Shown here: positions 1,824 through 28,386 of the stretch, piece by piece | Position numbering within the stretch: position 1 is the first letter of the stretch | Layout of the letters: the number at the start of each line of letters is the position of its first letter | IMG/VR virus record: IMGVR_UViG_3300031994_000017 | Coordinates: 122,023 to 150,408 of that record | Strand: one strand, 5' to 3' | Origin: a virus | Lineage: Duplodnaviria > Heunggongvirae > Uroviricota > Caudoviricetes | Length of the DNA: 28,386 nt | Translations under genes and position numbers: made by a program | The notes under the pieces: model-generated | Databases searched by the model: none | Seen by the model: the letters and a program-made list of their open reading frames with translations, nothing else | What the model was told of the DNA's origin: nothing

Positions 1824-2390
1824 ATGTAGATGCTAGAAGATTTTTGTTTAAGTATTATGGCGGGAATATTAATTGGTATAGCCTGTTATGCGAATTTGCT
1901 ATATGGCGGCGTTTTAGGTGCTTTTCTTTTCTCTTTTGGTCTTATTGTAATTGTTTATTTTAGATTTTATCTATATACTGGAGCTATTGGAAAAGTATTC
2001 GATGATAATGGACCAAAAGTATGGGAATTGGTAATTTTTTGGATTGGAAATTTCTTGGGGATTTGTTTCTTTGCGGCCGCAGTTGATTCTGTGATTGTTT
2101 CTTCTGCTGCTATTTTAGTTGTTGAGAAATACGCGGCGCTGGGGTTTTTGCGATTGGTTGGTTTAAGTATCTTTTGCGGCATGGCAGTATTTTTCGCTGT
2201 CTCAGGCGAAAAGAATATATTTAAGATTATTTTGTGTGTAATGATATTCGTGTTATGCGGATTTCCGCACTGTATAGCGACTATGGGCTACATCGTTTTT
2301 GCGAATGGGGTTTGGCCGCATTTTTGGATTTTAATTCCTATTACTATTGGTAATAGCGCAGGGGCTTTATTAGCTAGATTATGTTTATGA
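1824..2390 (+). CDS. formate/nitrite transporter (FNT) family membrane protein, short form
   Basis: Hydrophobic, with FNT-type motifs AGILIG, LFSFGL..LYTG, GNFLG, CGMAV..AV, FVLCGFPHCIA, GNSAGA; promoter 1760-1788. RBS AAAGGATGGT spacing favours ATG 1824 (ATG TAG ATG, code 15) over ATG 1830. Confidence 0.8.
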
Positions 2391-2391
2391 T

Positions 2392-2499
2392 TTAGAACAT
2401 TAGAGTAATAAGATAAATAAGATATAAAATTTGTGGTGCGTAAATATCTAGATGATATTTGTAATAGATATTACCGATTGCGTTAGCTATTAACCGCAT
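2392..2499 (-). CDS. small hydrophobic peptide (35 aa)
   Basis: MRLIANAIGNIYYKYHLDIYAPQILYLIYLITLMF*; AAAGGAG RBS and own promoter TTGATT-17-TATAAT (2536-2564); not in ORF track. Confidence 0.55.
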   Translation of the reverse strand: MRLIANAIGNIYYKYHLDIYAPQILYLIYLITLMF

Positions 2500-2581
2500 T
2501 GTTGGTTTTCTCCTTTTTTTATTTTTTCTATAAATATTATAGCATATTTTTTATTAAAAATCAATTTTAAGATTTTTAATT

Positions 2582-2719
2582 AAAATGGTAATTTGTGATA
2601 GTCACTGATAAAAGTGGTAAAAATTTTAGGCAATTTTTGATAGTTACCGATAAAAATGGTAAAATTGGATAGTTACTATTAAAGTGGTAATTTTTGATAG
2701 AGACTTATTAAAATGGTAA
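2582..2719 (+). repeat. iteron-like direct repeats AAA(A/G)TGGTAA-N5-GATAG
   Basis: AAARTGGTAA at 2582, 2611, 2653, 2681, 2710 (spacings 29, 42, 28, 29 bp); a sixth copy with GATAG at 3441. Confidence 0.75.
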
Positions 2720-2806
2720 TTTAGGAAAAAAATATTAAAATTTTTGGTATTTTTTAGATAAAGTATTAAAAGTAATTTTTATATATAGTAGAAGGAGGGA
2801 AGTATA

Positions 2807-3442
2807 ATGGAATAGAAACGTTTTCCTGCGGATACTGTATTAAGTTATTAGACTTTTTTAAATGATAAGAAGATAAACGGAGAATTATATGCTTTGATGT
2901 AGAGATATAGTAAATATGAAGTGTTGGATAAGGATAAAAATAAATTTAGAACTTATGTAATGAAAAAAGATTTACCTTCATAGAAGGTTATTATGGAAGC
3001 ATTAGATATAAAAAGTCCAAAGACTCTTAAAGCGCATATAAATTATTTATTAGAGTAGGGATATATTGTTGAGGGAGATAAGTGTTATGATTTGCCTGAA
3101 AAAGAAGATATTTATTTTTTAATACCTTTAGAAACTTTGTAGTATTTAAATGATAATTGTAAAGAGCATGTTATAAAGATATATATTTATTTAGGATAGC
3201 GATATAAAATGGTTGAAAAAGAAGATAGAGATTATGTTTTTACTTTAGAAGAAATAGGGGAGCATATTGGAATTGCGGTTAAAAATCATAGTGCGGGTTA
3301 TAGAGTTGTAAAAAATGCTTTGGATTTGTTGTAGAATAGTGGCTTAATAGATTATGTGGGATATTTTGATGGAGTTTCTTAGAAGAAGAAGCTGCGTGAA
3401 TTCAGTTTTGAGTATCACAAAAATGGATGTAAAAACATTTAA
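2807..3442 (+). CDS. tandem winged-helix DNA-binding protein, candidate replication initiator (code 15, 211 aa)
   Basis: GAAGGAGGGA RBS, ATG 2807, TAA 3440-3442; open only if TAG=Gln (9 TAG, no CAA/CAG). Two wHTH-like segments: LDIKSPKTLKAHINYLLEQGYIVE and FTLEEIGEHIG...VVKNALDLLQNSGLIDY. Confidence 0.8.
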
Positions 3443-3999: not shown

Positions 4000-4260
4000 T
4001 TATTTAGTAAATAATAATTTGTATGGTAATTTATTACTAGGTAAAACTATTTAGTAAAATATTAAGTAAAAATGTTTAGTGAATTATTTAGTAAAATAAT
4101 AAACATTTTACTAAATTTATGGATTTTATTAAAATTAGTTGTAAAATTTATTAAAATATTTAGTAAAAACTTAATAAAATTTAGTAGATTTTAGTAAAAT
4201 TTATTGAAAATTTAGTAAAATTGTAAAATTATTTGTGAAATTATTCACTAAATTTTTGTA
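4000..4260 (+). repeat. AT-rich TTTAGTAAA repeat array (left boundary of small-gene region)
   Basis: About ten exact or one-mismatch TTTAGTAAA copies, a few inverted (e.g. TTTACTAAA 4107), in ORF-free DNA. Confidence 0.75.
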
Positions 4261-4529
4261 AAATATTAAAGTTGTAAAATCATAAAATTATAAAATTGTG
4301 AGAGTGGGGTGCCCCGCCCATCCGATTGCCCCAATCGCTTACCTCGTAATCGTTACCGAACACTTTTTCAAGAACTTTTCCAATCGGTTTTAAAAAAGTG
4401 AGGCCCAAGTCAGAGCCCCACTTCTCAAACCATCCATAACCACAGCTAGGAAGAGTTCTACGCCCATTTTTTCTAATCTTTTATAAACTTTGTCAAGCTA
4501 CAAATTTTTGAGGCTCAAAATGCCGAATT

Positions 4530-4946
4530 TCAAATAAATTTGCTAATGGTTTTAAGGAAATCCGCCAATACCTCATCATCACTCTTTGCCCTCTTACAAG
4601 AGCATTTATAGGTCTGGTCCTGTTCTTGAGCAGAGAAAAGACTACCCATTGCCTCAACTAGGTCAAGAGATTCTGCAACGCCTTCATTAAAATCATTCTT
4701 GACGAAAACAAAAGAATCCATTCCGATCGCATCACAGTATTCCCGCAACGCTTCGCTATACTTTTCCGCGAACTTCTTCCGTGCGGCATTCTTCTTTTCT
4801 TCTTTCTCCTGGGCAGCACGTTTGGCCGCCATAGCTTCATTGTGCTCCTTTTCAGCGCGTTCAAGGTCTTTTGACATCTGGGCTGCCAAGTCCTCCGCCT
4901 TAACACCTTTGCGCAACTGAGCCAACAATTCAGAATAAAAATCCAT
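4530..4946 (-). CDS. hypothetical coiled-coil protein
   Basis: 138 aa, GAAGGT RBS, own promoter TTGATT-17-TAAAAT, TGA stop; charged helical N-half. Confidence 0.8.
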   Translation of the reverse strand: MDFYSELLAQLRKGVKAEDLAAQMSKDLERAEKEHNEAMAAKRAAQEKEEKKNAARKKFAEKYSEALREYCDAIGMDSFVFVKNDFNEGVAESLDLVEAMGSLFSAQEQDQTYKCSCKRAKSDDEVLADFLKTISKFI

Positions 4947-5047
4947 ATTTTTTACCTTCTTTTCTTATTTTCTATATATATTTTATCAAAAATTTTTATA
5001 AAAATCAACTTTTTCAGCTATTGGATGAATTATTTTCAATTTTTTAT

Positions 5048-5076
5048 TTGATTTATTTAATTTTTTATGTTATAAT
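5048..5076 (+). promoter_or_regulatory. rightward sigma70-type promoter with no downstream ORF
   Basis: TTGATT-17-TATAAT with TG extension, divergent from the 4946 gene promoter. Confidence 0.6.
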
Positions 5077-5563
5077 ATATGGGGGAACAGCTTTTACATA
5101 AATATATGAATATTTAGCATAAAAAATTGCGTGAAATGGGCCAAACAATCGGAACTTTCAGGTGATAATGCGGCCATATGCGAACATGCGATTGGCCCAA
5201 TCGGGTGTAAGCTCAACTTGTAATTTCGGGAAAACGCATATGCGTTCTCACTTTCAACATTTTGTGCGGCCATATGGTAAGAGGTTGCGTGCGCGGGATT
5301 TCGGGCCTTCGCCTGCGTCTGCGGCCCGATGAGTTGACATAATTCGGGATTATGTAGACCGGCCCCTAAATGAGAATATAGACAATTACAAATCAGAGGT
5401 GGCTTCTCAGTCCAAAAACGGCGCGCTACGATAGAAAGCGCGCCGGCCAAAAAATTTTGGGAAATTGAGCTAAATTTAGATAAATTTATATTTTGGTCAA
5501 TAAATGCTAGTGGCCTTAGTCTGCGGAAATTCGAGACTACACGAGCAGTCCCGGCGCTTGCGG

Positions 5564-5683
5564 TTAGCACCAATCAGTGGGTAATTTGCCGCAAAAATCA
5601 CGCAATACGCATTTGCCGCAATCTTCAGCATTCAAACAAGTAGCTAACAATTGAAGCAAAGCTTTCACCAATTCACTAGGCAT
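5564..5683 (-). CDS. small Cys-rich peptide (39 aa)
   Basis: MPSELVKALLQLLATCLNAEDCGKCVLRDFCGKLPTDWC*; GAGGTG RBS; promoter 5722-5750; not in ORF track. Confidence 0.7.
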   Translation of the reverse strand: MPSELVKALLQLLATCLNAEDCGKCVLRDFCGKLPTDWC

Positions 5684-5771
5684 TTATAAATTCACCTCAA
5701 CTTTATTTATTTTCTATATATATTATACAAAAAATTTTTATAAAAATCAAATGAGGGGCGCTAGCCCCTCA

Positions 5772-6050
5772 TTAAGCATGATAGATTTTACCATCTACTA
5801 CATAGATGATAGACTCTATTCCATCATAGTCGTGGATTTCCCAGTCGGTAGTATTGTCCGGGATTTCTACCACATGTAATTCCGCGTAATCACCATTTGC
5901 GTCTTTCCCAAGAGTTTCAACAACTTTTACGAGATTAGGATTATAGCGGGCAAGCTCATCGGCGTCCCAGTAATCCGCCAGACCAAGCTTTTCTGCCGCA
6001 ACCTCAGATACCTCAAAACCACCAAAGCACTTATTGAGAACAAACTTCAT
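5772..6050 (-). CDS. phage hypothetical protein
   Basis: 92 aa, AAAGGAG RBS, TAA followed by ATGAGGGGC-TAGC-GCCCCTCAT hairpin. Confidence 0.8.
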   Translation of the reverse strand: MKFVLNKCFGGFEVSEVAAEKLGLADYWDADELARYNPNLVKVVETLGKDANGDYAELHVVEIPDNTTDWEIHDYDGIESIIYVVDGKIYHA

Positions 6051-6210
6051 TTTTATTATCTCCTTTCATTTGCGCACGAATATAATTGATTTCTTCTTCT
6101 GTTAAACTTTCATATTCTTCTTTGACTTCTAGGTCTTGACAATAAGGTGGATAAAATACATCTGGATACGTTACCATCCAAATGGTTAACCGATGAAATT
6201 TGGTCCTCAT
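6031..6210 (-). CDS. hypothetical protein (59 aa)
   Basis: MRTKFHRLTIWMVTYPDVFYPPYCQDLEVKEEYESLTEEEINYIRAQMKGDNKNEVCSQ*; AAAGGAG RBS; first gene after promoter 6241-6269; not in ORF track. Confidence 0.65.
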   Translation of the reverse strand: MRTKFHRLTIWMVTYPDVFYPPYCQDLEVKEEYESLTEEEINYIRAQMKGDNKNEVCSQ

Positions 6211-6265
6211 TTTTATTGTCTCCTTTCATTTGGTATCTTAATTATACCACGCGGAAGGGCTTTTG

Positions 6266-6700
6266 TCAAGCCCTTTTCCGCAAAATCTCAAAAATTTTTT
6301 CAGGAGTATACGCTGTGCCAGTCCAATCTTTGCGGACGGCCTCGCAATCGTCAAAGAGAATGTCTTCGTCAGATGCGAATAATTCTTTAGGATAGCCATA
6401 GGGAACAATATGGATTTCATTGAACCTAACGCTAGGGAGATGTTTCCGCAACCATTTTCTTTTAGCTTCCATTACATCTTGATTGTAAGTAGCGCTTCCG
6501 CCCTTGCTAGTCCAAGAGATAATACCAATGTTAATTCCGGAGCGCTGGGCCGCATTAAGTAGGCGGGCCAAGGTGGCGAAGTGAAGCAAAGGCTTTGCGT
6601 CAATATAGGGGCTGGGGTCACTGTTCCGCAATTTCGGGAGCCAGTTTTCTACACCATAGAGATCAGCGATTGTGCCGTCCATGTCAAAGTAAATAGTCAT
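6266..6700 (-). CDS. HAD-superfamily phosphatase (5'(3')-nucleotidase-like)
   Basis: Motif I FDMDGTIADLY, motif II IISW, motif IV ILFDD; own promoter 6746-6774. Confidence 0.85.
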   Translation of the reverse strand: MTIYFDMDGTIADLYGVENWLPKLRNSDPSPYIDAKPLLHFATLARLLNAAQRSGINIGIISWTSKGGSATYNQDVMEAKRKWLRKHLPSVRFNEIHIVPYGYPKELFASDEDILFDDCEAVRKDWTGTAYTPEKIFEILRKRA

Positions 6701-7298
6701 TTTTTTCTCCTTTCTTTTGGAGAGTTTCTCCCTCTCTGTGATTGTATTATATCATATCTTGAACTATTTGTCAAGTATTTTTTTAAGTAACCCCCTCAAA
6801 AAAGTCTCTTGCCGTGGCGCTCACTACGACCTAATAAAGTGTATCTGTTGCCCTTGGCTCACCTTTTTCTGTTGGGGGGAGTATCCTTCCCATTCTTGCC
6901 CCGCCAGGGAAATACTCAAAAGGCGTGCGGGCTACTTTCTTAAATCTAAAAGTAATAAAACTTTACCTGCTTTATCCGCTTTTTCAGTGTTTGAAAAATG
7001 GTTTGGGGGCAACATTATCCATAAAATGTCATCCAATCTGCTTTTTTGATACTCGCAGGAGCAGATGGGTTCAACCTCCACAGTCCCAAGTTCATGGCGC
7101 CCTTCCCTCGGAACAATTGTATTATAGCATATGGGGATGAAAATGTCAAGTGTTTTGGGAAAAATTTTTGAAAGAATTTTTATTCACTTTTGCGGATAAA
7201 AATACATAATTTATTGGTTTACATAAAATTCCGGTCGCTTGCGTTGTAAGCGACCGGCCCAGCTTTTGTGTAAAATGACGAAAAATCACCCTGTATCT

Positions 7299-7934
7299 CT
7301 ACAAGGTGATTTCCGCATAGGGAGAGGGAGTGTTGAAATAATATTCAGCGCAAGTGAAAAAATATTCAGTCGGAATATCCATGTCAAAAAATCGGTCATT
7401 CTTGTGAAAGACTTCGGGATAGTCTCTAATAAAGCAGGCCCGTAAATAACTCTCTAGGCCCTCGGCAGGCAGGTCTCCGCAATCCACAATTCCGCAAATC
7501 TTAACCTTGACAATTGGAAAACCGGTTTTCTGATAGCTTGCGATTTCTTGCTTTAAGCGGTCTAGGCAAGAATTAACAGTTGTTCCAATCTTTGTGAAAA
7601 GCGGTTTATTTGCGTCATTATAAAACTTGAAGAAATAGCACTTCTGACTCTTTTTCTTGCTATCCTTGCCTTGTGCGGTTTTCTCATATTTGATAACCAC
7701 ATTTCCCCAATTAATGAGAAAATCATCAAATTTGCTTGTTCTTCTGCGGTTGGTCTTGGGAGGCGTTTCCGCGTATGCGGTCTTGGCTTCATTCATGAGA
7801 TACTTATAGCCGCAATAGTCGGCAATAGTGGAAGCCTTTACGCCGATTTCTTCCGCGATTTCCGCGTAACTTTTTTCTTCAACAAAACGAAGATACAGAG
7901 CCTTTAAGACTCTTTCCTTTTTACTATCAGTCAT
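7299..7934 (-). CDS. N-terminal HTH plus GIY-YIG/T5orf172-like C-terminal domain protein
   Basis: KSYAEIAEEIGVKASTIADY is HTH-like; CYFFKF..FTKIGTT..DRLKQ resembles GIY-YIG/T5orf172; ends at TAG inside a terminator hairpin. Confidence 0.7.
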   Translation of the reverse strand: MTDSKKERVLKALYLRFVEEKSYAEIAEEIGVKASTIADYCGYKYLMNEAKTAYAETPPKTNRRRTSKFDDFLINWGNVVIKYEKTAQGKDSKKKSQKCYFFKFYNDANKPLFTKIGTTVNSCLDRLKQEIASYQKTGFPIVKVKICGIVDCGDLPAEGLESYLRACFIRDYPEVFHKNDRFFDMDIPTEYFFTCAEYYFNTPSPYAEITL

Positions 7935-7960
7935 TTTTTCTCCTTTTGGTGCGTCCCCCG

Positions 7961-8350
7961 CTATTTCTTCGGGGGACGCTTTTCCACAAGTGTTAGCTCA
8001 AAACGCTTTTCACCAACAGCAAAAGCAATCATGCGGTTTTTGTTAGTGATTTCTACGTTTTCGGGTTGGAATGTCGCTTTTTCGGCCATCAAAGTTGCGA
8101 TTTCTGCGACAATTGCTTCTTTCAGTTCGTTGGGCTTGCGCTCTCGGTGAACATCACTTTTGCGCTTATGCGTATCTACGTTAGCATATTTTTTAGCTCG
8201 CTTTTCTTCTTCGGGTGAGAAGTCAAAGTAAACACGCTTGCCGGAGTCAATTGCTTCATCCTCTTGGATAATATCAATTGCTTCTTCCCTAGAGCAATCA
8301 AGTGATTTCATCAATTCCGCAATCCGTCTTTCCTTTTGATTTGCGGTCAT
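7961..8350 (-). CDS. hypothetical protein, paralog of 9606-9965
   Basis: 129 aa, AAAGGGG RBS, promoter 8377-8405; TAG stop in the loop of GCGTCCCCCG/CGGGGGACGC hairpin. Confidence 0.8.
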   Translation of the reverse strand: MTANQKERRIAELMKSLDCSREEAIDIIQEDEAIDSGKRVYFDFSPEEEKRAKKYANVDTHKRKSDVHRERKPNELKEAIVAEIATLMAEKATFQPENVEITNKNRMIAFAVGEKRFELTLVEKRPPKK

Positions 8351-8434
8351 AGGTGTTTCCCCCTTTCGTTGGTTTTATTATAGCACCTTTTCCGCCATTT
8401 GTCAAGAGGTTTTTCAGATTTTTTGTGGGGAGGC

Positions 8435-8809
8435 TTACGCCTCCACCACAATCTGATAGAAGATATGATTCTTGCTCACAACCCTAGCCACCTTATTATC
8501 AGCGACAAGGTCCCTCATAAGGAAAGTCACCTTCGGGCCAGTCAGCCCAGCATCGGGAATGAGAACCTTTGCGATTGTGTCGGAGGAGTAAAGAGTCTCC
8601 GGCTCCATAGCAGAGAGAATATCCGCACGAAGGCCAGCGTCTGTTTCTCTCTTTGCGGTCTGGGCCTTGGTAGGCTTACGCTCCGCAGAATTACGTCTAA
8701 TGGTCACATCACGAAGCTGGACAAGCTTCTCCTGGACTTCGCCCTCAGTGCGGTCAATGGCAACATTCAGAGCGTCCACATAGGTCATCTTCTTAGTAGC
8801 AGTAGTCAT
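8435..8809 (-). CDS. probable winged-helix DNA-binding protein, paralog of 10022-10393
   Basis: 124 aa, AAAGGA RBS, own promoter; C-terminal LYSSDTIAK..GPKVTFLMRDLVADNKVARV..FYQI has a wHTH pattern. Confidence 0.8.
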   Translation of the reverse strand: MTTATKKMTYVDALNVAIDRTEGEVQEKLVQLRDVTIRRNSAERKPTKAQTAKRETDAGLRADILSAMEPETLYSSDTIAKVLIPDAGLTGPKVTFLMRDLVADNKVARVVSKNHIFYQIVVEA

Positions 8810-8904
8810 AGTATCAATTCCTTTCTGGTTTATTGGGTTTTCCTTCCCTTGATTACGCTCTTATTATAACATACTTTTTGAAGTTTGTCAAGAGGGAATT
8901 TCAA

Positions 8905-9360
8905 ATTTCTTTGAAATTTTTTAGCAATACGCGAGAAGTCCTGTCGCCTATCTTCTTATTTTACCGAGGCGCGACCATCGGAAGGAATTTGCCGCGCCCT
9001 CTTGACATTGCTATTATAGCACATTTTGTGCTGTTCGTCAAGGGGTTTCTGAAAAAAATCTCTAGAAAATTTTTTTCATCCTCGTGCGTTCCTATGAGAG
9101 TCATCTATCTCAATCTTATAACCGCTTTAGGTCTATTGCGACTTCCAACCGCCGCCCCACACCAAAGAAGTGGCTCAGAGGTATCTCCCCTTGACATTGA
9201 CATTATAGCACATTGTGTGCTATTTGTCAAGGGGTTTTTCAAAAAATTTTTGAAAAAGTTTTTTCGTTACCGAGTATCCAAAACCAAGAGAGCCCTTTGG
9301 GACTTTTATCTCTTGCCCCTTGACATTGATAGTATAGCACATTTACATCCAAAAGTCAAG
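8905..9360 (-). ncRNA. three tandem promoter-driven ORF-less units (candidate small RNAs)
   Basis: Promoters at 9013-9041, 9202-9230 and 9331-9359 are each followed by NNCAATGTCAAGRGG and 70-130 nt of hairpin-rich sequence with no RBS-ATG ORF. Confidence 0.45.
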
Positions 9361-9454
9361 AAGTATTTTTATACATTTTAATGAATATTCATACGTTCAT
9401 CAAAACGCACAATTCCGGGAGAAAAAATAATTGAAAATTTGTTGATTTTGCCTA

Positions 9455-9520
9455 TTGACAAAAAGCTGAGGGTGTGGTATAATGGAATTTCCGGCCGCCC
9501 CGCGTGTAAGCGGCCGGTCG
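9455..9520 (+). promoter_or_regulatory. antisense promoter plus GC hairpin module
   Basis: GCCTATTGACA-17-TATAAT (TG extended), then AATTT-CCGGCCGC/GCGGCCGG stem, then CGATGAA. Confidence 0.7.
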
Positions 9521-9605
9521 ATGAATATTTATACATTTTTATGTATAAATATTCAACGCATACAAAATGAATGAATATTCACCAGAGTGAATATTCATTC
9601 GTTGA

Positions 9606-9965
9606 CTATTCGGATTTTGCGGGGCGGTGTTTGGTGAGTTTCAGCGTATAGGTCGCGCCATCAAACGCGAATAGGATTTCCGTTTCAGTTTTCATTTCCA
9701 AGACTTCTGCCCCGGCACCCTCAAGCGGTATCCTACAAAGGTTCAAAATGCGCTTTTTCGTTTTATCAACTTTTCGCTCACGCTTTACCGGTGTAGCCTG
9801 CTTGCGCTCTGCGCGTCTCGCCTTTTTTGCGCCAGCTTTGCGGTCTTCGGGCAACTCATAAAGTTTTGCGCCTCGGTCGATTTCTTTGTCTTCCTCAATG
9901 ATTTCTAGGGCTTCCGCTTCGCTAATGTTCAGCGTATCCATGAGCTTTTTAACCTGTGCGGTCAT
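9606..9965 (-). CDS. hypothetical protein, paralog of 7961-8350
   Basis: 119 aa, AAAGGAG RBS; shares LM..L..S..EA..II.ED..ID.G and ER..RK..K; TAG stop. Confidence 0.8.
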   Translation of the reverse strand: MTAQVKKLMDTLNISEAEALEIIEEDKEIDRGAKLYELPEDRKAGAKKARRAERKQATPVKRERKVDKTKKRILNLCRIPLEGAGAEVLEMKTETEILFAFDGATYTLKLTKHRPAKSE

Positions 9966-10021
9966 GGGTTAATCACTCCTTTTTTGAGTAGGGCGGGGAT
10001 TGCTCCCCGCCCCTTGGGGAA

Positions 10022-10393
10022 TTACGCAAGGGAGTAATAAACCTTGCGCTTATCGGTGGTCTTGCTCACCTTGCCCTCGGCAACCAGTCCCCGCATAAGG
10101 TAGGAAACCTTGGGCGCAGACAGACCAAGAGAAACCACAGTCGGCAGATTCTTTGCGATTTCATCAGACGAATACAGGGTACCGGGCTCCATCTCGGAAA
10201 GGATAGCGGAGCGGATTTCGGCGTCCTGCGCCTTCTGTTCTACCTGCTTCTTGGTGGGCTTGCGCTCGGCAGTGTTGCGCTTGATGGTCTGGTCACGAAG
10301 CTGAATCAGCTTCTCCTGAACCTCATCGGAGGTCACAGCAATGGCGGCATTCAGAGCGTCAACGTAGGTCATCTTCTTGGTGGAATTAGTCAT
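10022..10393 (-). CDS. probable winged-helix DNA-binding protein, paralog of 8435-8809
   Basis: 123 aa; first 18 residues 15/18 identical to paralog (MTNSTKKMTYVDALNAAI); tandem promoters at 10467-10495 and 10558-10586. Confidence 0.8.
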   Translation of the reverse strand: MTNSTKKMTYVDALNAAIAVTSDEVQEKLIQLRDQTIKRNTAERKPTKKQVEQKAQDAEIRSAILSEMEPGTLYSSDEIAKNLPTVVSLGLSAPKVSYLMRGLVAEGKVSKTTDKRKVYYSLA

Positions 10394-10623
10394 GGTATCA
10401 AATCCTTTCTTGCGGTAGGTCGCAACCCATTTTTTTATTTTTTGTTTTATCCCCTTGGGACACCCTTATTATATCATATCCAAATCAGCTTGTCAAGTGT
10501 TTTTTTCACTTTTTTCAAACTTTTTTGGTTTTTCGGGGTTTCCCTTTGGAGTGTCTTTATTATAGCAAATTTTTCCGCATTTGTCAAGAACTTTTTTTAT
10601 TTTTTTTGAGGAATTATGGGGAG

Positions 10624-18721: not shown

Positions 18722-18826
18722 ATGTGTTGTTGTTTATCTCTCTTGCTTACATTGACATTATAGCATACTTTTTATTACTTGTCAAGAGTTTTTTTTAATT
18801 ATTTTTAGGAAAAATGGAAGAAGGTT

Positions 18827-19033: not shown

Positions 19034-19230
19034 AGTTATTGATTCCTTTCTTTTTTCTATAATTATTATACCATAATTTTTCCAATTTGTCAAGAAAAAT
19101 TTTGAAAATTTTTCCAAAAGATTTCGGGAAAATGTGCCATAAGGCCGGCATAAGTGCGACCGATTGCCAATATAGCTAGAGCCTTATATATCGTGAGATC
19201 GGGTCGCCACGCCCCCTGGCGACCCGGCGG

Positions 19231-19446
19231 TCATTTTACGACCGCCTTGTAGCTTTCCCACTCGGTCAGGGTCAGGTGCCGGCTCAGGAGTAACTTTTTT
19301 AATTTATGTCTAGCATTATTCGTCTTTCTTTTGGTTGATTGGGTCATCTCTAGCTTAAACAGTTCATCAATCTCTGATTCACTAAAGCGCAACATAATTT
19401 GTTCAGCTTGGGCTTCTCTTAAAATTTCAGTGTTAAAGTTATACAT
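19231..19446 (-). CDS. hypothetical protein
   Basis: 71 aa, AAAGGA RBS, second gene of the 19705 unit. Confidence 0.7.
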   Translation of the reverse strand: MYNFNTEILREAQAEQIMLRFSESEIDELFKLEMTQSTKRKTNNARHKLKKLLLSRHLTLTEWESYKAVVK

Positions 19447-19492
19447 AATTCCTTTATCCTTTCTTTAATTGATTTATGTGATACTATGGGGA

Positions 19493-19705
19493 TTAAGCTT
19501 CCCCATAGTATCTTGCCATTTCTTCCATTTCTTCATCTGTAGGGAATTTAAATTCCATAATCGGAATATTTGTTTCTTGCGCTTTCCATTCCGTGATGAT
19601 TTCTTTCATTTCTTCCTCGGTGGGAAAATCGCTTTTCATATTTTCCCATTCTGCGACTTCTTCCATAGCATCGGCAACAACTTCCCAGTCATACATAGTA
19701 TACAT
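19493..19705 (-). CDS. acidic hypothetical protein with internal FPT(E/D)EEM repeat
   Basis: 70 aa; DFPTEEEMKEI and KFPTDEEMEEM. Confidence 0.75.
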   Translation of the reverse strand: MYTMYDWEVVADAMEEVAEWENMKSDFPTEEEMKEIITEWKAQETNIPIMEFKFPTDEEMEEMARYYGEA

Positions 19706-19835
19706 AACTTTAATTCCTTTCCGGTTTAATGGGTTTTCCTTCCCTGTTTCTGATTAGATTATAGCGTTTTTAGTGTCCAATTATTGGGACTTTTTAGAGC
19801 ATTTCATTTTTTAGGTTTTTGATTTTTTATTTGTA

Positions 19836-19927
19836 TATACTGTATTTTTATACAAATTTCGCCTGCGGCGGGCTTAGCGGAAGTTCGGAATTCACATTCA
19901 TTCACGAGAATTAAAAAGCAAGGGTTT
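19836..19927 (+). repeat. 92-bp exact direct repeat, copy 1
   Basis: TATACTGTATTTTTATACAAATTTCGCCTGCGGCGGGC...AAAAAGCAAGGGTTT, identical to 21617-21708. Confidence 0.9.
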
Positions 19928-19965
19928 ATTTGTCAAGTGTTTTTTGAAAAAAAGAAGAAGATTTT

Positions 19966-20187
19966 TTAATCTTCTTCTTTTTCCCAATATTCTTCAAGAG
20001 CTTTGTTAAATTCTTCTACTGTTAAAACAGTGTTTCTGCCATCTTCAAAACAAGTAGTCAAATAGAAGAATGGCCCTCTAAGACCGGCGGCACAGCTAAC
20101 AGCTTCTTCCACGGAAACATAATCATCACCATGACATTCACCAGTTTCAGCATTGTACAAAGCGTAAGTTCCAGTGTATTTTTTCAT
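19966..20187 (-). CDS. hypothetical protein
   Basis: 73 aa, AAAGGA RBS, palindrome-class promoter. Confidence 0.75.
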   Translation of the reverse strand: MKKYTGTYALYNAETGECHGDDYVSVEEAVSCAAGLRGPFFYLTTCFEDGRNTVLTVEEFNKALEEYWEKEED

Positions 20188-20300
20188 TTTTTAATTCCTT
20201 TCCGGTTTAATGGGTTTTCCTTCCCTGTTTCTGATTAGATTATAGCGTTTTTACTGTCCCATTATTGGGACTGAATTGTTTTTAGGTTCTTTCCGGTGGT

Positions 20301-20522
20301 CTATTCGACCACCGGAAAGCCCATGCTATAGGATTCAATCCGCAGGAGTTTGGCAATGCCGCCACTTTCTTCCCAGACTTCCCGAACAGCGGAAAGAAGT
20401 TCGCCGCCCTCGCGGTCAATAGCAACCGCCGCTTTGAAGAAATCAGATTCTGAGCCGTAGCCAGCTTTATAGAAGTTGCCGCGGGCAGTATAAGCAGTGA
20501 GAGAGTAGGTGTAAAGAGTCAT
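20301..20522 (-). CDS. hypothetical protein
   Basis: 73 aa, palindrome-class promoter; TAG stop in loop of a 12-bp TTTCCGGTGGTC/GACCACCGGAAA hairpin. Confidence 0.75.
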   Translation of the reverse strand: MTLYTYSLTAYTARGNFYKAGYGSESDFFKAAVAIDREGGELLSAVREVWEESGGIAKLLRIESYSMGFPVVE

Positions 20523-20771
20523 GATTTTAATTCCCTTCCGGTTTATTGGGTTTTCCTTCCCTGTTTCTGATTAAATTATAGCGCTTTTACTGTCCAATTT
20601 TTGGGACTGTTTAGGTTATTTGTGTTTCTAGGCTTTCGAATAAATATACAATTATACTGAATTTTTATACAAATTTCGCTCGGCACGATGCCTCGCGAGG
20701 TCGGCGGTTAGTGATCGCTAACAGGTGCTACAAAGAAAAAACAAAGCCCGCTCAAAAGGCGGGCTTTATTT

Positions 20772-20957
20772 TTAGAAATCCTCTACGATCTGACCATTGG
20801 CATTGACAAGATAGCACTCATTAAAATAGTCGCGCCCAATATACCGGATGCACTCGGAGGGGCTACCTTCGAAGTGCTTATAATTGGTTTCACGCTCATA
20901 CACCGTCCACTTTTCTTCCTTGACTTCCTGGCGGCGGCGATTAAAAAATTTTTTCAT
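20772..20957 (-). CDS. hypothetical protein
   Basis: 61 aa, GAGAGGA RBS, palindrome-class promoter, AAAGCCCGC/GCGGGCTTT terminator. Confidence 0.75.
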   Translation of the reverse strand: MKKFFNRRRQEVKEEKWTVYERETNYKHFEGSPSECIRYIGRDYFNECYLVNANGQIVEDF

Positions 20958-21091
20958 GATTTTGGTTCCTCTCTGGTTTATTGGGTTTTCCTTCCCTGTT
21001 TCTGATTAGATTATAACGCTTTTGTTGTCCCATTATTTGGACTGATTTTTTAGATTTTTAAATAAAGCCCATTTTCATGGGCTTTATCTGT

Positions 21092-21292
21092 TTAGCAATA
21101 TCCAAGAATTTTTTCGGGGACAAATTCAATTTGAGAAAAATCAATGTGCTGGCCGCATCCTTTACACTGTTTCGGTTGATACTTGGGGCCAGCGTTTAAC
21201 TGCTTTCCGCAGATCGGGCAATTAAACTGCTGGAATTCGGCTCTGACAAAACCGTATTTTTTGTATTCGACAAAGTTGATAATAGGAGTCAT
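21092..21292 (-). CDS. zinc-ribbon protein (CxxC...CxxC)
   Basis: 66 aa; FNCPICG...KQCKGCGQHID; GAGAGGT RBS; own promoter. Confidence 0.8.
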   Translation of the reverse strand: MTPIINFVEYKKYGFVRAEFQQFNCPICGKQLNAGPKYQPKQCKGCGQHIDFSQIEFVPEKILGYC

Positions 21293-21616
21293 TTTTGAAT
21301 ACCTCTCTTTTCAAATTTTTAGAGCTTCTAACTGCCCCTCACACTTATTATTATACTCATTTTTTCTTTAATTGCAAGCTTTATTTTTTTGAGTTTTTTT
21401 AGTAAAAAATTTAAAAAGTTAGATTTTTTGCCCTTTTTAAATTGCTTTGGTAGACTTTTGGTTGAGAAAAATTGTGATTTGTGCATTTTGTAGTTTGTTT
21501 AAAGAAAAAATAGTTAGTTTGTGTGCAGAATCCACAATGAATAATTACTTAATTTTACTCAATTGCGGGAGTTTAGTAAAATTGAGTAATTTCTGGAAAA
21601 TGTATAATTATTCATG

Positions 21617-21708
21617 TATACTGTATTTTTATACAAATTTCGCCTGCGGCGGGCTTAGCGGAAGTTCGGAATTCACATTCATTCACGAGAATTAAAAAGC
21701 AAGGGTTT
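21617..21708 (+). repeat. 92-bp exact direct repeat, copy 2
   Basis: Identical to 19836-19927; here it continues into a complete AAAAAGCAAGGG/CCCTTGCTTTTT terminator. Confidence 0.9.
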
Positions 21709-21726
21709 TATCCCTTGCTTTTTTAG

Positions 21727-21864
21727 TCAGTCAACATAAGTTTCCCTTTTAAGGCTCCATTCGTTCATGTTTAAGCCCGCTTTGCGAAAAGCATTTGTGT
21801 AGCTATAACCAAAGATTGTAAGAGTCTTTTTTGTGGTAGGGTTGTAGATATCGTATTCGTACAT
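21727..21864 (-). CDS. hypothetical protein (45 aa), paralog of 17232-17402
   Basis: Start moved to MYEYDIY (AAAGGAG RBS); IFGYSYTNA motif. Confidence 0.7.
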   Translation of the reverse strand: MYEYDIYNPTTKKTLTIFGYSYTNAFRKAGLNMNEWSLKRETYVD

Positions 21865-21905
21865 TTTTTTTGTTCTCCTTTTTATTTGTTTTATTTGCCT
21901 CTCTC

Positions 21906-22046
21906 TCACACATTGGTGAGAGAGAAGTCTTTGGTATTATACTTCTTACACATTCTAATAGCCATGATCTGAGCCTCTTTGATGGAATTGAGAACCCAAC
22001 TGCGGGTCTCCTTGCCAGTGTTAACGGTGAGTTTAGTCTTAGTCAT
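21906..22046 (-). CDS. hypothetical protein (46 aa)
   Basis: MTKTKLTVNTGKETRSWVLNSIKEAQIMAIRMCKKYNTKDFSLTNV*; leader identical over 48 bp to that of 21292; not in ORF track. Confidence 0.7.
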   Translation of the reverse strand: MTKTKLTVNTGKETRSWVLNSIKEAQIMAIRMCKKYNTKDFSLTNV

Positions 22047-22235
22047 TTTTGAATACCTCTCTTTTCAAATTTTTAGAGCTTCTAACTGTCCCTTTCACCT
22101 ATTATTATACTCATTTTTCTTTCAAAGTCAATACTAAATTACTTAATTTTTTAACTTAATTTCTTACTAAAATGTTTAGTTTATCTTTGTATGTTTATTC
22201 ATTATTTTGTATAATTATACATTCATACAAGTCAT

Positions 22236-22615
22236 CTTTTCAAGATACTTTTTCATGTATCTTTTTAGGATACAAATAAATATTCATGCGAAATGAATAT
22301 TTAAATAAATATACAATTATACCGCATAAATATACAGTCTGGGGCGCGACGGTTATACACGATTATTCACTAATGTAAAACATTATTTGTATACAGTTAT
22401 TCATTTTATACATTGTTTATTCTTGTGTCACCTTTTCAAGATACTTTAACAGCATCGCTGTGTGTATCTTACTGAGTCACTTGCCGCACTATTGTATCTT
22501 AGCAAGATACTTTTGCTGTATACTCCCCCTTGTATTTTACCACACGAATTACTATTTGTCAAGATCTTTTTTCAATTTTAACAAAAAATTTTTTCACCTT
22601 TTCAGGATACTTTGG
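22236..22615. repeat. AAGATAC/GTATCTT direct and inverted repeat cluster
   Basis: About eight copies including palindrome GTATCTT-AGC-AAGATAC near 22494-22510; includes a leftward TTGACA-17-TAAAAT promoter (22535-22563) with no ORF. Confidence 0.6.
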
Positions 22616-22957
22616 CTAATTTGTTTGTTTTATATTATTGTTTATTTATTCGTATATTCAGTATATTTATACATTTTGGGTCGCGACGATTGATGCGGTT
22701 CAGTCTCTCATGTGTTCCACATTATTCACCGTCCGCTGTCGTTCTCTCTCTGCTTTAGTGCTGTGTTGTATGGTTGAATGGTTGTATCTGTGTGTCTTTG
22801 TGCTTCTTGCTATTGTCTCTTTGTCTACTTGTCCTCTTTGGCTATTTAGCACAATGCTTATTTACTCACTGTCTGTCTTTACATCGCCCTTGCGCATAGC
22901 TCTTTAGCAACAGAGCGGGCTTGCTTCTCTTAACAAGCCCGCTCTGCCTTTTGTAGT

Positions 22958-23320
22958 TTACTTAATCGTCCAACTAGAGTATCTAGCTGATACAATTTTA
23001 TCATCAAAGATTGAATCTGTCCCGCAATCATCCATCATTGCGCTAACACAATCATTGATTTCCCAATCTTCTGTGCCATAGAACTCCCAGCGGTGCCCTG
23101 TGCTATCTTCCATGGTCACTGTATCATGCTCTTTGTCAATCTCTACAACTTTACAAGTTAACGCATAGAACTGTTCATCTGACTGTGTGGTGATAATTGC
23201 TTGGTCTGAGGTAAGTATCTTAGCAATGCTAAAAGTTAACGCAATTACACTAATTACTGTTAGCACAATACTAGCCCAAATGATTACTCTAATCTTCTTG
23301 TTTGGAAAGAACTCTTTCAT
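22958..23320 (-). CDS. membrane-anchored hypothetical protein
   Basis: 120 aa; single N-terminal hydrophobic helix, acidic beta-rich C-domain; GGAGG RBS; promoter TTGTAA-17-TATACT. Confidence 0.8.
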   Translation of the reverse strand: MKEFFPNKKIRVIIWASIVLTVISVIALTFSIAKILTSDQAIITTQSDEQFYALTCKVVEIDKEHDTVTMEDSTGHRWEFYGTEDWEINDCVSAMMDDCGTDSIFDDKIVSARYSSWTIK

Positions 23321-24107: not shown

Positions 24108-24314
24108 TCACTCTTTTACCACCGTATAACCATTCTCTTTTAATAACTTAATTGCTTTTGCTACATCCTCACCAATAGCCGCGTCAGTTTTCTATATAGT
24201 TATATAATTATCAATTACACCAATCTCTAATTCATCCCCACTAGCAATGTTAAATCTAGTCCGTAAAGCCTAAGGAATAACTATTCTGCCCAAACTATCA
24301 ATTTTCTTAATCAT
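24108..24314 (-). CDS. abrB: AbrB/MazE/SpoVT-family transition-state regulator (code 15, 68 aa)
   Basis: MIKKIDSLGRIVIPQALRTRFNIASGDELEIGVIDNYITIQKTD... matches the AbrB motif (K.D.LGRIVIP..LR....I..GD.LEI); needs 2 TAG=Gln; GGAGG RBS; not in ORF track. Confidence 0.85.
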
Positions 24315-24646
24315 ACTGTATCCTCCTAATAAAACATAAAACTTCCATCTTTATACCAAACAACTCTAACATCTTCTAAATACTAGATAATCTCTTCCTA
24401 TCCTAACATCTTAAACATTTCTTCAATTCCTTCCATTTCCTCATTATTAGTTTCTAAAAAAGCTCCTACTAAATTTTCACTTTTATAATGCGAAAAATCC
24501 CATATCTCCTTTCCACTTTCCCCAATACTCAAACTAAGAATTAGTTTAACATGCCGCCATTCCTACTAAATATCATGCGAATAAAAAATTACATACCCTA
24601 ACGTAATCACAAAAATGACCGCAGCCGCCATAAATCCATATATCAT
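24311..24646 (-). CDS. membrane-anchored hypothetical protein (code 15, 111 aa)
   Basis: AAAGGAG RBS, promoter TTGACA-17-TATAAT (24677-24705); with 5 TAG=Gln the frame ends at a TGA overlapping the AbrB ATG (ATGA coupling). Confidence 0.75.
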
Positions 24647-24740
24647 AATTTTTTCTCCTTTTCTTTTGGTATTTTAATTATATCAAAAAAAATAAAAAAT
24701 GTCAATATTTTGCCGCCATAAAAATTGGTCCAAATAAAAT

Positions 24741-24769
24741 TTGACAATAGCAAAAAATTTTTGTATAAT
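24741..24769 (+). promoter_or_regulatory. sigma70-type promoter for the regulator/packaging operon
   Basis: TTGACA-17-TATAAT followed by ATGTATAGAAA and GGAGGTG RBS; divergent from 24677-24705. Confidence 0.8.
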
Positions 24770-24796
24770 ATGTATAGAAACTGGAGGTGAAGTCTT

Positions 24797-25903
24797 ATTA
24801 TAAAGTTAGACTATACATTAGAAACTCCAGAAGCCAGAAAAGAATTAGTCGAAAAAATACTTGCGGATTTGGAAGAAAATAACCTTACACCTTCTGACGC
24901 TTATTTAGAATCATTGGCTGATTACTTGATTATTGGCGTGGAGAAACAAGAAAAAAAAGAAAAAAAATCTATATTAACCGATAATCGCATGGTTACTATT
25001 AATAAACGTGAAACTTCTTTTGAGGGTCTTGTTTCCCGGTTAGAAAATGGCGAAAATGGTATTTATAATATGATAGCAGAAGATAAAAATATAATATTCC
25101 AACCAAAAGTAACAATAACTAAACAAGATATAGAAGATATACAACCTTTACAACAATTACGCGCAGCCATAGAATATTGGGAAAATAAAATGAAGACTAC
25201 TACTGGGCGCGAAGCTTATATTATTAAACGAACTTTAATTGATTTGCGGAAAGACCAATATGTAATTAAAAATGCGTATCGGCGTCCTATAGTCCCTAAT
25301 AAAATTATTCGTTCAAGATATAGTTGCCCAATAGAAGAAACGTTTAATGGTTTTGATGCGGAAAATTACCCAAAATTTTCTGGTGTCACCCTAACCGATC
25401 CCGCAGTCTGTTCCGCCATTCTTTGTAATTATTCTAAACTCAAAGAGGACTCTTGGGGCAATTTTGAAGGAGATGTTTGGTGCTTTCTTTATGATTTTGA
25501 AGATTGCTGCGATACGGCTTTGCGGCCATACCCCATTTACGAACGCATAGTTGAATGTAAAATAGATGGAAAGCAAAATGCGGAAATTCAAGCTATTTTA
25601 AAAAAAGAATTTAATTGTAATCATAGTGTAGAATATATTTCTAGCTTATGGCGGAAAAAAATTCCAAGTTTAATTGCTTCTACTGCGGAAGATAAATGGT
25701 TAGAATGGTATTATACTACTCAAGAACAAGGTTATTTCAAAAAATGTAATAGATGCGGAAAAATTAAATTAGGTCATTTAAAATATTTTTCTCGTAATAG
25801 ATCTAGTAAAGATGGACTTTATTCTCTCTGTAAAGAATGTAGAAGTAAAAGTCGTTCTTTGGGCCGAAAAGTTCAAACTATTCCTACCGAATTAGATAAT
25901 TAA
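24797..25903 (+). CDS. putative transcription regulator (sigma/antiterminator-like HTH with C-terminal C4 zinc finger)
   Basis: Frame is open upstream of the track start to ATT 24797, 7 nt after GGAGGTG (no ATG); HTH-like KIDGKQNAEIQAIL..HSVEYISSLWRKKIP and CNRC...CKEC; no in-frame TAG. Confidence 0.7.
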   Translation: MIKLDYTLETPEARKELVEKILADLEENNLTPSDAYLESLADYLIIGVEKQEKKEKKSILTDNRMVTINKRETSFEGLVSRLENGENGIYNMIAEDKNIIFQPKVTITKQDIEDIQPLQQLRAAIEYWENKMKTTTGREAYIIKRTLIDLRKDQYVIKNAYRRPIVPNKIIRSRYSCPIEETFNGFDAENYPKFSGVTLTDPAVCSAILCNYSKLKEDSWGNFEGDVWCFLYDFEDCCDTALRPYPIYERIVECKIDGKQNAEIQAILKKEFNCNHSVEYISSLWRKKIPSLIASTAEDKWLEWYYTTQEQGYFKKCNRCGKIKLGHLKYFSRNRSSKDGLYSLCKECRSKSRSLGRKVQTIPTELDN

Positions 25904-25920
25904 AAGAGAGGAGGAATAAT

Positions 25921-27090
25921 ATGTCAGCTTATTATTGTGAGAAATGTCAACGCACTTTAGATGAAAAAGAATTTTATAATTCAAATAATTTAGAAAAATA
26001 TCCAACTGGCAAATTAAATCAATGTAAAAAATGTATTACAATGCATGTTGATAATTGGGACCCATCTACTTATACTTGGATACTCTAGGAATGTGACGTT
26101 CCCTATGTTCCCGATGAATGGAATAAAGTATTAGCAAAATATACTTCAAGCGGAACAAAAATTACAAGTATGACTATTCTCGGTCGTTATCTTTCTAAAA
26201 TGAAACTAAAGCAATTTAAAGATAAACGCTGGTAGGATACAGAAATTTTGTAGAAACTGGCGGAAAATAAAATGACCGAAGCAATGCGGAAACAGGGGTT
26301 TTCCGAAGGTGAAATTGAAGAAGCAATTCAAAAAGGAAAAATTCCTACTCCCGAAAGGCCAGAAGATGAACAAAAGGATATTCCAATCGCAGAAGAGCCT
26401 GTTCCGCTGCCTGACCCATTAGATGACATTGACCTTACCGATGAAGAGCGCACTATGTTGCGGTTAAAATGGGGTAAAATGTATCGTCCCGATGAATGGG
26501 TATGGTTAGAAAAAATGTATCAAGATATGATGGCTTCTTATGATATTTAGACTGCTGGTCATATTGATACATTAAAACTTTTATGTAAAACTTCTCTTAA
26601 AGCTAATTAGCTTATAGATATAGGCGATGTTGAAGGCTTTCAAAAGATGCAAAAAGCATATGACTCATTAATGAAGTCAGGTAAATTCACCGCGGCTCAA
26701 AACAAAGACGCAAAAGGTGAATTCGTAGACTCTGTTTCTGAAATTGTAGCATTATGCGAAAAAGAGGGCTTCATACCTCGTTATTATGTCAGTGAACCGC
26801 AAGACCAAGTAGATTATACTATTAAAGATATGCAACGATATACTAGAACTCTTATTACAGAAGAGATGCATCTTGGCGAGTTAATTGAAGAAGCAATTAA
26901 AAATAATGCCAAAGAAGATAATAAAGAAAATGAAGATGAAGATCTTGATTTAAACGATGATGATAGCGATATTGAGCAAATTGAGCGTGGTTTGCGTGAT
27001 GAAGATTATGAAAACTATGGAGACTTCATAGAAGAAGAACAAAACAAAGATAAAGAGTATCTTGATCTTGTCCTAGGAGGTCAAAAATAA
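25921..27090 (+). CDS. Zn-finger protein preceding TerL, candidate small terminase subunit (code 15, 389 aa)
   Basis: GAGGAGG RBS, ATG 25921; MSAYYCEKC...QCKKC; joins track ORFs 26272-26550 and 26647-27090 through 5 in-frame TAG; TAATG-coupled to TerL. Confidence 0.8.
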
Positions 27091-28386
27091 TGGCATTACA
27101 AGAATTACTAGGAACCATAGATGTTCAAAATAAAATTGGTATTTCTGAAGAACGGTTGCGGGCCGTTCTTCCTTCATTGCGGCAATACGTTGCTTTTTGG
27201 CGTGAATACCCTGATTTAATGGTAGATTTTTTTGTTAAGGGTACTCGCACCGAACATAAAGAGGGTGAATTTCGTTTTTATTTTTATCAACGAGTTTTTT
27301 TGCGTGTAGTTATGCGCTATTAGTATGTGTATGCGGTCTTTCCGCGCGCATATTCAAAGTCATTTTTAACAGTTATGTCAATGATGTGTCGTTGTATTTT
27401 ATATCCACGATGCAAATTGTTTGTAACAAGTGGAGGCAAAGAACAAGCCGCGAGTATTCTTTCTCAAAAGGTTCAAGAAATATGTACTCTTATTCCCGCA
27501 TTTTCAAGAGAAATAGATTGGCGGCGTGGAGTCACTCAAGAGCAAAAAGACCATTGTCGCTATGTTTTTAAAAATGGTAGTGAACTTGATAACTTGGCGG
27601 CCCGAGAAAGTTCTAGAGGACAGCGTCGTCATGGCGGCACCATTGAGGAATGTGTTGGTGTAGATGATAAAATTTTGCGCGAAGTTATTATTCCTACAAT
27701 GGCGGTTAATAGACGATGTATGGATGGTTCTATTCAAAGAAATGAACCTTTAAATAAAAGTTAGATTTTTATTACTACTGCGGGTTATAAAAATACTTTC
27801 CCTTATGACCGTTTAATTGGTTTCTTGGTTCGTATGATTATGCAGCCAGAACGTTGTATGGTTCTTGGCGGCACTTGGCGACTTCCTGTAAAAGTAGGCC
27901 TACAAGATAAAACATTTATTCAAGACCAAAAGGATGAAGGAACTTATAATGAGGCTTCTTTTGAACGCGAATATGAATCACGTTGGACAGGAGATGTTGA
28001 AAGTGCTTTCTTTAATTCGGATGCTTTTGAACGTAATAGAGTTTTAAATCAACCAGAATATGAACACTCAGGACGCACTAGTACTAAATAGTATTATGTT
28101 CTTTCTGTAGACGTGGGTCGTAAGGGAGACAATAGCGTAATTTGTGTTTTTAAAGTGACACCGCAATTACAAGGTGTGGCATTAAAACAATTAGTTAATA
28201 TATATAGTTTTACCGCCGAACATTTTGAAGACCAAGCTATTTTTATTAAAAAATTATATTATAAATATAAAGCTAGAAGAATTGTTATTGATGGTAATGG
28301 CCTCGGTATTGGCCTGTTGGACTACATGGTAAAACCTCAAGTTAATGTAGAAACTAATGAAACTTTCCCAGATTTTGGTGTTTATG
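27090..28386 (+). CDS. terL: terminase large subunit (code 15, 3' partial)
   Basis: One frame through TAGs at 27321, 27762, 28089: P-loop FPRAYSKS, Walker B GTIEE, motif III QIFITTAG, RNase H-like LSVDVGR and IVIDGNGLG. Confidence 0.92.

Follow-up and report, generated by a model that had tools for sequence, protein, structure and literature searches.

Can a single phage genome use the codon TAG as a stop signal in one group of genes and as a glutamine codon in another, and could this difference decide when the genes are expressed? The question is raised by the final 28.4 kb (28,386 nucleotides, positions 122,023 to 150,408) of the record IMGVR_UViG_3300031994_000017, from a tailed gut phage, hereafter called the window, in which a dense minus-strand array of small genes is flanked by genes that are interrupted by TAG. 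Coordinates are those of the window unless genome positions are indicated. The record is a single 150,408-bp contig, rated complete by IMG/VR and CheckV, and its 127-bp direct terminal repeat indicates that the assembly is circular. Comparison with homologous sequences shows that TAG is read as glutamine in packaging, structural, and three small regulatory genes. In our view this is probably a two-code phage, whose array is written in the standard code and expressed early, and whose TAG-containing genes would become readable after the build-up of a tRNA with the anticodon CUA, tRNA(CUA).

An earlier reading of the window, made from the sequence alone, had singled out five genes that are intact only if TAG is translated. 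Its TAG counts (9, 5, 2, 5, and 3, in the order listed here) were reproduced exactly from lists of open reading frames (ORFs) under the standard code (code 11) and with TAG as glutamine, together with direct translations:

2807-3442, plus strand: winged helix-turn-helix (wHTH) DNA-binding gene, 211 amino acids, all nine glutamines encoded by TAG
24311-24646, minus strand: transmembrane (TM) protein gene, 111 amino acids, all five glutamines encoded by TAG
24108-24314, minus strand: AbrB/MazE (SpoVT-fold) gene, 68 amino acids, both glutamines encoded by TAG
25921-27090, plus strand: Zn-ribbon YonG-like gene, 389 amino acids, five TAG codons, phrog_3314, with PF27269 on its orthologues
27090-28386, plus strand: terL (large terminase), first 432 of 584 amino acids, three TAG codons in the window

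The terL gene crosses the window end and the 127-bp terminal repeat and stops at genome position 585; the complete protein of 584 amino acids has five TAG codons. For TerL and AbrB, the identities proposed in the sequence-only reading held. TerL belongs to phrog_2 and contains the motif KSQIFITTAG, with Q225 encoded by TAG, and the AbrB protein matches PF04014 (36 bits versus a cut-off of 24.7) over residues 2-43, which cover both TAG codons, and contains the motif LGRIVIPQ, with Q15 encoded by TAG. The gene described there as a Zn-finger gene has an N-terminal CxxC...CxxC pattern and corresponds to the YonG-like gene located upstream of terL in relatives. The proposed gene couplings are also evident from the coordinates: the TM and AbrB genes overlap by 4 nt (ATGA), and the Zn-ribbon gene and terL by 1 nt (TAATG). 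The N-terminus of the TM protein is hydrophobic and, as judged by eye, probably membrane-spanning.

The Rep-like label given to the gene at 2807-3442 was not confirmed, as no Rep family matched above its cut-off and only sub-threshold winged-helix similarity was detected. Its weak matches are DUF6945 (25.3 bits versus a cut-off of 28), LexA_DNA_bind, and a ScpB-like phrog. This wHTH protein has 365 homologues, some of which contain HTH_36, and glutamine is invariant at TAG sites 32, 59, and 131. A tblastn search of the wHTH and TM proteins against a phage collection gave no match, and their relatives were recovered only from a large protein database.

With regard to the meaning of TAG, the comparison of codes 11 and 15 suggested by the earlier reading was carried out on the whole genome. 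The share of the genome covered by stop-to-stop ORFs of at least 150 amino acids is 42% under code 11 and rises to 76% when TAG is read through. Several conserved genes are intact only with TAG read through, including TerL, the YonG-like gene, the AbrB domain, a protein of 3207 amino acids that carries 108 TAG codons, and 27 of the 29 genes of the plus-strand packaging and structural block (the late block). In DNA of approximately 30% GC, their frames contain no TAA or TGA over lengths of 211-3207 codons, and only TAG interrupts them.

The genome of Enterococcus phage H1, which uses the standard code, served as the reference for an alignment of all predicted proteins, in which each TAG was written as X. 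Ninety-eight TAG sites were found opposite an H1 residue, most often glutamine (20), followed by glutamate (12), lysine (12), and serine (11). In a likelihood test based on substitution spectra taken from the same alignments, glutamine was the best fit (lnL = -264.4, compared with -283.1 for glutamate, the next residue; a margin of 18.7 ln units). The fraction of sites with glutamine in H1 was 20.4% for TAG, in line with 22.7% for CAA/CAG. Closer relatives, recovered via the large protein database and sharing 72-99% amino acid identity in the codon comparison, have TAG opposite CAA of this genome at 19 sites, opposite CAG at one, and opposite other codons at five. For example, Q15 of AbrB is encoded by TAG here and by CAG in the 99%-identical orthologue of relative L015, and TAG and CAA replace each other between relatives at invariant glutamine columns of the wHTH family. 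TAG225 of TerL is opposite glutamine in four of five homologues. The sequence-only reading had named homologues that align to other residues or end at these codons as evidence against glutamine; what was found is that glutamine is the best residue, that all homologue alignments run across the TAG codons, and that no homologue terminates at any of them.

The array between the flanking genes was curated, and three of its ORFs that end in TAG are listed with it:

4530-23320, minus strand: early array, 44 curated small ORFs with AAGGAG Shine-Dalgarno sites, 4188 codons
7961-8350, minus strand: array ORF ending in TAG, whose orthologue in relatives L013 and L014 ends in TAA at the identical residue
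9606-9965, minus strand: paralogous array ORF ending in TAG, whose orthologues end in TAA one residue away
7299-7934, minus strand: array ORF (helix-turn-helix, sigma-70 region 4-like) ending in TAG

It had been claimed that the approximately 45 genes of this region need no readthrough, which is borne out by the complete absence of internal in-frame TAG from the 44 ORFs. Their 4188 codons contain 97 off-frame TAG triplets (43 + 54) and 99 CAA or CAG codons. At the TAG share of the late block, 44.5%, the chance of observing none in 99 is about 5e-26, and the difference is significant even if terminal TAGs are counted as sense codons (P-value = 2.5e-12, Fisher test). The 44 stops comprise 25 TAA, 13 TGA, and six TAG. 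In relatives L010-L012, the orthologues of 7961-8350 end in TAA within a few residues. A terminator-like hairpin (9600-9569) lies directly after the TAG of 9606-9965, and the 51 codons that would be read through after 7299-7934 cross two terminator-like hairpins into the next promoter. Because of the six TAG ends, the TAA-ending orthologues, and the hairpins, the array is considered standard-code rather than just dual-readable; to judge from these features, it uses TAG as a true stop, beyond merely avoiding it. The contents of the array include a DnaQ-like exonuclease, two NT5C-like genes, and a helix-turn-helix protein; for the exonuclease, no relatives were found among viral_contigs.

Promoters provide an independent view of the same region. 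A scan of the whole genome for perfect TTGACA-N16-18-TATAAT sites gave 30 promoters, compared with 0.39 in shuffles, and nearly all of them have an extended -10 TG. Twenty-nine are located in the window and 26 inside the array, where 24 lie on the coding strand and two on the opposite strand. Sites matching at least 11 of 12 positions number 54 in the genome, 38 of which are at 125-147 kb. The features relevant here are as follows:

6241-19093, minus strand: span of the perfect promoters of the array, 24 minus-strand and two plus-strand TTGACA-N16/17-TATAAT sites, one without the extended -10 TG
14025-14100, minus strand: tRNA-Lys(UUU) gene in the array, preceded by a promoter (11/12 matches) at 14151-14123
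24677-24769, no single strand: divergent pair of perfect promoters, conserved in relatives L015 and L017
23808-23836, minus strand: terminator-like hairpin ending the TM+AbrB operon
24869-25903, plus strand: sigma-factor-like gene with a C-terminal Zn ribbon, 344 amino acids, no TAG and 12 CAA codons

Within the divergent pair, the promoter at 24705-24677 (-) heads the TM+AbrB operon, which starts 24 nt downstream, and the promoter at 24741-24769 (+) heads the sigma-like, Zn-ribbon, and terL genes, between which no evident terminator was found. No perfect promoter was found near the tRNA cluster in the genome scan. By promoter content, the array would be the likeliest first-expressed region. 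A similar cluster of promoters occurs in the small-gene array of phage H1, suggesting that the early region is older than the recoding. In the host-takeover module of Bacillus phage SPO1, dense small genes are likewise arranged in groups behind consensus sigma-A promoters; the difference is that here the same kind of region is the TAG-free compartment of what is probably a two-code genome.

The earlier reading had also proposed a search of the rest of the genome for a CUA-anticodon tRNA and for a glutaminyl-tRNA synthetase (GlnRS) or release factor 2 (RF2). ARAGORN detected 32 tRNA genes, one of which has the anticodon CUA (genome c[104164,104240]). It is part of the tRNA cluster 17.8 kb before the window, outside the array, and contains a U1.U72 mismatch, G2-C71, G3-C70, G73, and an encoded CCA. 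The tRNA shares 79% identity with a suppressor tRNA of phage phAss-1 and has the same place, adjoining tRNA-Leu(UAA). Release-factor domains (PF03462 PCRF, PF00472 RF-1) and the Glu/GlnRS domain (PF00749 tRNA-synt_1c) had no match in the complete genome, and thus neither a GlnRS nor an RF2 gene was detected. The phage's own tRNA(CUA) is likely the decoder of TAG, and since RF2 and GlnRS genes are absent, any switch would depend on the tRNA alone.

Two further observations concern decoding. An array ORF of 49 amino acids (13336-13485, minus strand) scores exactly at the Pfam gathering cut-off for ArfA (25.5 bits, E = 8.9e-6); the match is marginal, spanning profile positions 23-43 of 44, and the peptide showed no sequence match to solved ArfA chains. 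A rescue factor that recruits RF2 would suit a phage whose suppressor pushes ribosomes past TAG stops. In addition, a gene of 241 amino acids (genome 102083-102808, minus strand, approximately 19 kb before the window) is located directly downstream of the suppressor tRNA and tRNA-Leu(UAA); it has eight TAG and three CAA codons in an otherwise TAG-poor region.

We also analyzed how the use of TAG is distributed among gene classes. TAG accounts for 44.5% of glutamine codons in the late block, 19% in the minus-strand genes at 35-84 kb of the genome, and 8% in those at 84-124 kb. In the wHTH, TM, and AbrB genes, all 16 glutamines are encoded by TAG and none by CAA or CAG, a significant excess over the late block (P-value = 3e-6, Fisher test). 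The same bias is seen in relatives. The wHTH gene of six relatives (53-65% identity) has 40 TAG, six CAA, and three CAG codons, and its minus-strand neighbours in these six are nearly all TAG-free; the TM gene of two relatives has 5/0/0 and 6/0/0. With this genome included, TAG represents 49 of 58 glutamine codons in the wHTH gene and all 16 in the TM gene, and a tandem TAG-TAG at codons 27-28 of the TM gene is kept in relatives. This conserved bias argues that TAG may be selected for in the wHTH, TM, and AbrB genes, beyond being tolerated. The arrays of four diverged relatives contain only five in-frame TAG codons in roughly 60 called minus-strand genes, whereas TAG/CAA turnover is fast in late genes, with ten TAG codons gained or lost in TerL alone at 90% amino acid identity. 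The contrast between the two argues for selection. The codons favoured in late genes did not match the tRNA set of the phage significantly (P-value = 0.29, Mann-Whitney test).

The sequence-only reading had divided the window into a standard-code array and recoded flanks. A partition is indeed present if it is drawn by gene or operon, but the split between array and flanks fails, because several genes in the flanks are likewise free of TAG (the sigma-like gene, a YunG-like gene, and, if it starts at the ATG at 1830, a transporter-like gene described below) and because the recoded TM+AbrB operon shares the strand and the promoter type of the array.

The explanation that we prefer is a two-code phage. 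On infection, the host polymerase and unmodified host translation would express the array, during which release factor 1 (RF1) would read TAG as stop. Accumulated tRNA(CUA) would then outcompete RF1, and the TAG-containing genes would become translatable. Such gating would act at translation and be separable from transcription, because the TM+AbrB unit and the sigma-like/Zn-ribbon/terL unit start at perfect host-type promoters. Several points weigh against this explanation, whose order of events is deduced from codon content and from the type of promoter. The gene classes cannot be told apart by their promoters alone, because the terL unit also begins at a perfect host-type promoter and another lies inside the late block (genome position 12394). 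The sigma-like gene has one and four TAG codons in relatives where this genome has CAA; the idea that it is kept TAG-free for synthesis before the switch was dropped as a rule. The array also differs in composition, with a GC content at third codon positions (GC3) of 0.415, compared with 0.20 in late genes. Finally, the acceptor and anticodon arms of tRNA(CUA) are also tRNA-Trp-like. The choice between a Gln-like and a Trp-like tRNA is ambiguous from its sequence alone and was not used as a basis; the assignment of glutamine therefore rests on the alignments.

Within the two-code explanation, it is possible, though rather doubtful, that the small regulators form a timer, in which the proteins of the wHTH gene and the TM+AbrB operon would not be made until tRNA(CUA) has accumulated. 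TM+AbrB, which heads the early region, would be transcribed together with the early genes; for the wHTH gene, there is just a weaker promoter-like site. The timer proteins might shut off early promoters or change the replication mode.

It appears unlikely that suppression operates without any temporal switch, i.e., that tRNA(CUA) is present from the start and only partially effective throughout, with TAG setting the amount of product and not its timing. Such a scheme would agree with the lack of a release-factor or synthetase gene to sharpen a switch, with a TAG share that is graded by class (44%, 19%, 8%, and 0) rather than all-or-none, and with the fast drift of TAG counts between relatives. 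However, partial suppression would be very costly for the most abundant virion proteins and for the 3207-amino acid protein with its 108 TAG codons, and genes that combine a tandem TAG-TAG with TAG-only glutamine resemble on/off gates. Moreover, the suppressor tRNA is not behind early-type promoters, whereas tRNA-Lys is.

We consider it improbable that the pattern reflects history and not regulation, in which case the array would consist of recently acquired standard-code genes of higher GC content that have had no time to gain TAG. The difference in GC3 would be expected under this explanation, as would the codon usage of the array, where CAG is as frequent as CAA although it is rare elsewhere. 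A markedly lower GC content of TAG-rich than of TAG-free regions is seen in this genome and in phAss-1 (L004-L006), but not in H1. On the other hand, the arrays of four lineages are near TAG-free while TerL shifted by ten TAG codons at 90% amino acid identity, and array paralogues are conserved in relatives with the position of the stop kept. In addition, CAG is one transition from TAG, and a CAG-rich array would quickly gain TAG without selection. The last alternative, that the interrupted genes are decaying pseudogenes or assembly artefacts, has nothing to support it but the code-11 interruptions themselves and is refuted by the facts that TAG is the sole interrupter, that domains span the TAG codons, that a suppressor tRNA is present, and that many independent assemblies show these genes with TAG codons as well.

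To which phages is this genome related? Its TerL shares 46.6% identity over 569 amino acids with the protein of Enterococcus phage H1, 42-43% with those of phAss-1 (42.6%), Geobacillus virus E3, and an Alicyclobacillus phage, and 58% with that of one human-faecal contig. On the basis of this TerL homology, the phage is a member of the Firmicute siphophage group that includes phAss-1, Enterococcus phages EF1 and H1, and Geobacillus virus E3. A crAss-like identity was our first guess and was dropped, as TerL homology pointed to Firmicute siphophages. A search for tyrosine integrases (PF00589), which did not include serine recombinases, found no match, and a reading of the recoding in terms of lysis and lysogeny is therefore not favoured.

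The model of a phage code switch is already published (Ivanova 2014; Borges 2021/22; Mgcod). Borges et al. (10.1101/2021.08.26.457843) proposed a model with early genes in the standard code, a suppressor tRNA, and recoded late genes, with particular genes preferentially recoded and the code of the infected cell changed. The present genome shares with that model the use of TAG as a sense codon via a phage suppressor tRNA, recoded structural genes, and early genes compatible with the standard code. It differs in being a Firmicute-type siphophage and not a crAss-like, Lak, Agate, or Jade phage, and in lacking a release-factor or aminoacyl-tRNA synthetase "code change module"; no module of the Jade type (RF1/RF2 or a cognate synthetase) is present in the complete genome. 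Furthermore, the most TAG-biased genes here are the winged-helix gene and the TM+AbrB pair and not a lysis cassette, and, except for a weaker site at the wHTH gene, the TAG-biased genes have perfect host-type promoters like those of early genes.

Babkin et al. 2023 (PMC10607447) reported TAG recoding and tRNA-Sup-CTA genes in phAss-1, the proposed Phassvirus, and a wider group that includes EF1. In phAss-1, TAG encodes glutamine in 41 ORFs, and a tRNA-Sup-CTA gene is next to tRNA-Leu(UAA). Shared features are a similar genome size, a tape-measure protein of approximately 3200 amino acids, and the lack of a dedicated synthetase. The present phage, a distant member of that group, encodes a single suppressor tRNA, whereas phAss-1 has three, and that study contains no analysis of the early array, TAG stops, promoter classes, or per-gene TAG bias. 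Mgcod (10.1101/2022.06.29.495998) identified multi-code "block" genomes, whose early-gene-rich part reads nearly alike under both codes. As in those genomes, one part of this genome requires code 15, but its early part is more than dual-coded, with six TAG ends, two of which have TAA-ending orthologues, and its code boundary and its strand switch do not coincide, as the TM+AbrB operon, though recoded, lies on the strand of the array. TAG-only glutamine in three small genes was not found in the compared literature on recoded phages.

Three other features of the window lie between its start and the end of the array:

1824-2390, plus strand: formate/nitrite-transporter (FNT)-like gene, PF01226 (E = 1.5e-16), 186-188 amino acids, short for the family
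2632-2722, plus strand: 29-bp x 3.2 tandem repeats with promoter-like hexamers, upstream of the wHTH gene
4041-4300, no strand assigned: iteron-like array of approximately 17 ATTTAGTAAA-like units, between the wHTH gene and the array end

The lone TAG of the FNT-like gene is codon 2, which a start at the ATG at 1830 would avoid. An FNT-like gene is near the wHTH gene also in relatives L013, L014, and L020. The ATTTAGTAAA-like units occupy a stretch that has no ORFs and a GC content of about 25-33%. Either repeat region may function as an origin, as a partition site, or as an operator array; as a hint of a Rep role for the neighbouring wHTH gene, the iteron-like repeats are suggestive only. Within the array, the perfect promoters at 9455-9483 (+) and 11584-11612 (+) oppose the coding strand and may serve antisense RNAs to early genes or small plus-strand ORFs. 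Two pairs of paralogues were observed in the array: the NT5C-like 5'-deoxynucleotidases at 6266-6700 (-) and 17674-18108 (-), and the small basic proteins at 7961-8350 (-) and 9606-9965 (-), which are duplicated in relatives too. In relative L015 (88-99% identical), terL is split by a GIY-YIG endonuclease gene (L015 1524-2306, minus strand), which is itself heavily TAG-coded (ten TAG versus four CAA codons) and echoes the recoded homing endonuclease of Borges et al. (10.1101/2021.08.26.457843).

Overall, this genome is a new and distant example of the published code switch, to which it adds TAG stops in the early compartment, an early region defined by promoters, and TAG-only regulators that are conserved. 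It also bears on annotation, as assigning a code by block or by strand would misread some genes here. The idea that a code switch controls timing in phages rests mostly on correlations of gene content, and the present genome is an exceptionally clear natural test case for it: approximately 26 perfect host-type promoters provide an independent marker of its early compartment, which also has TAG stops, and two transcription units join an early-type promoter to TAG-gated frames. Because Enterococcus phages H1 and EF1, which use the standard code, are culturable, reporters with and without the suppressor tRNA would be feasible in a tractable Firmicute.

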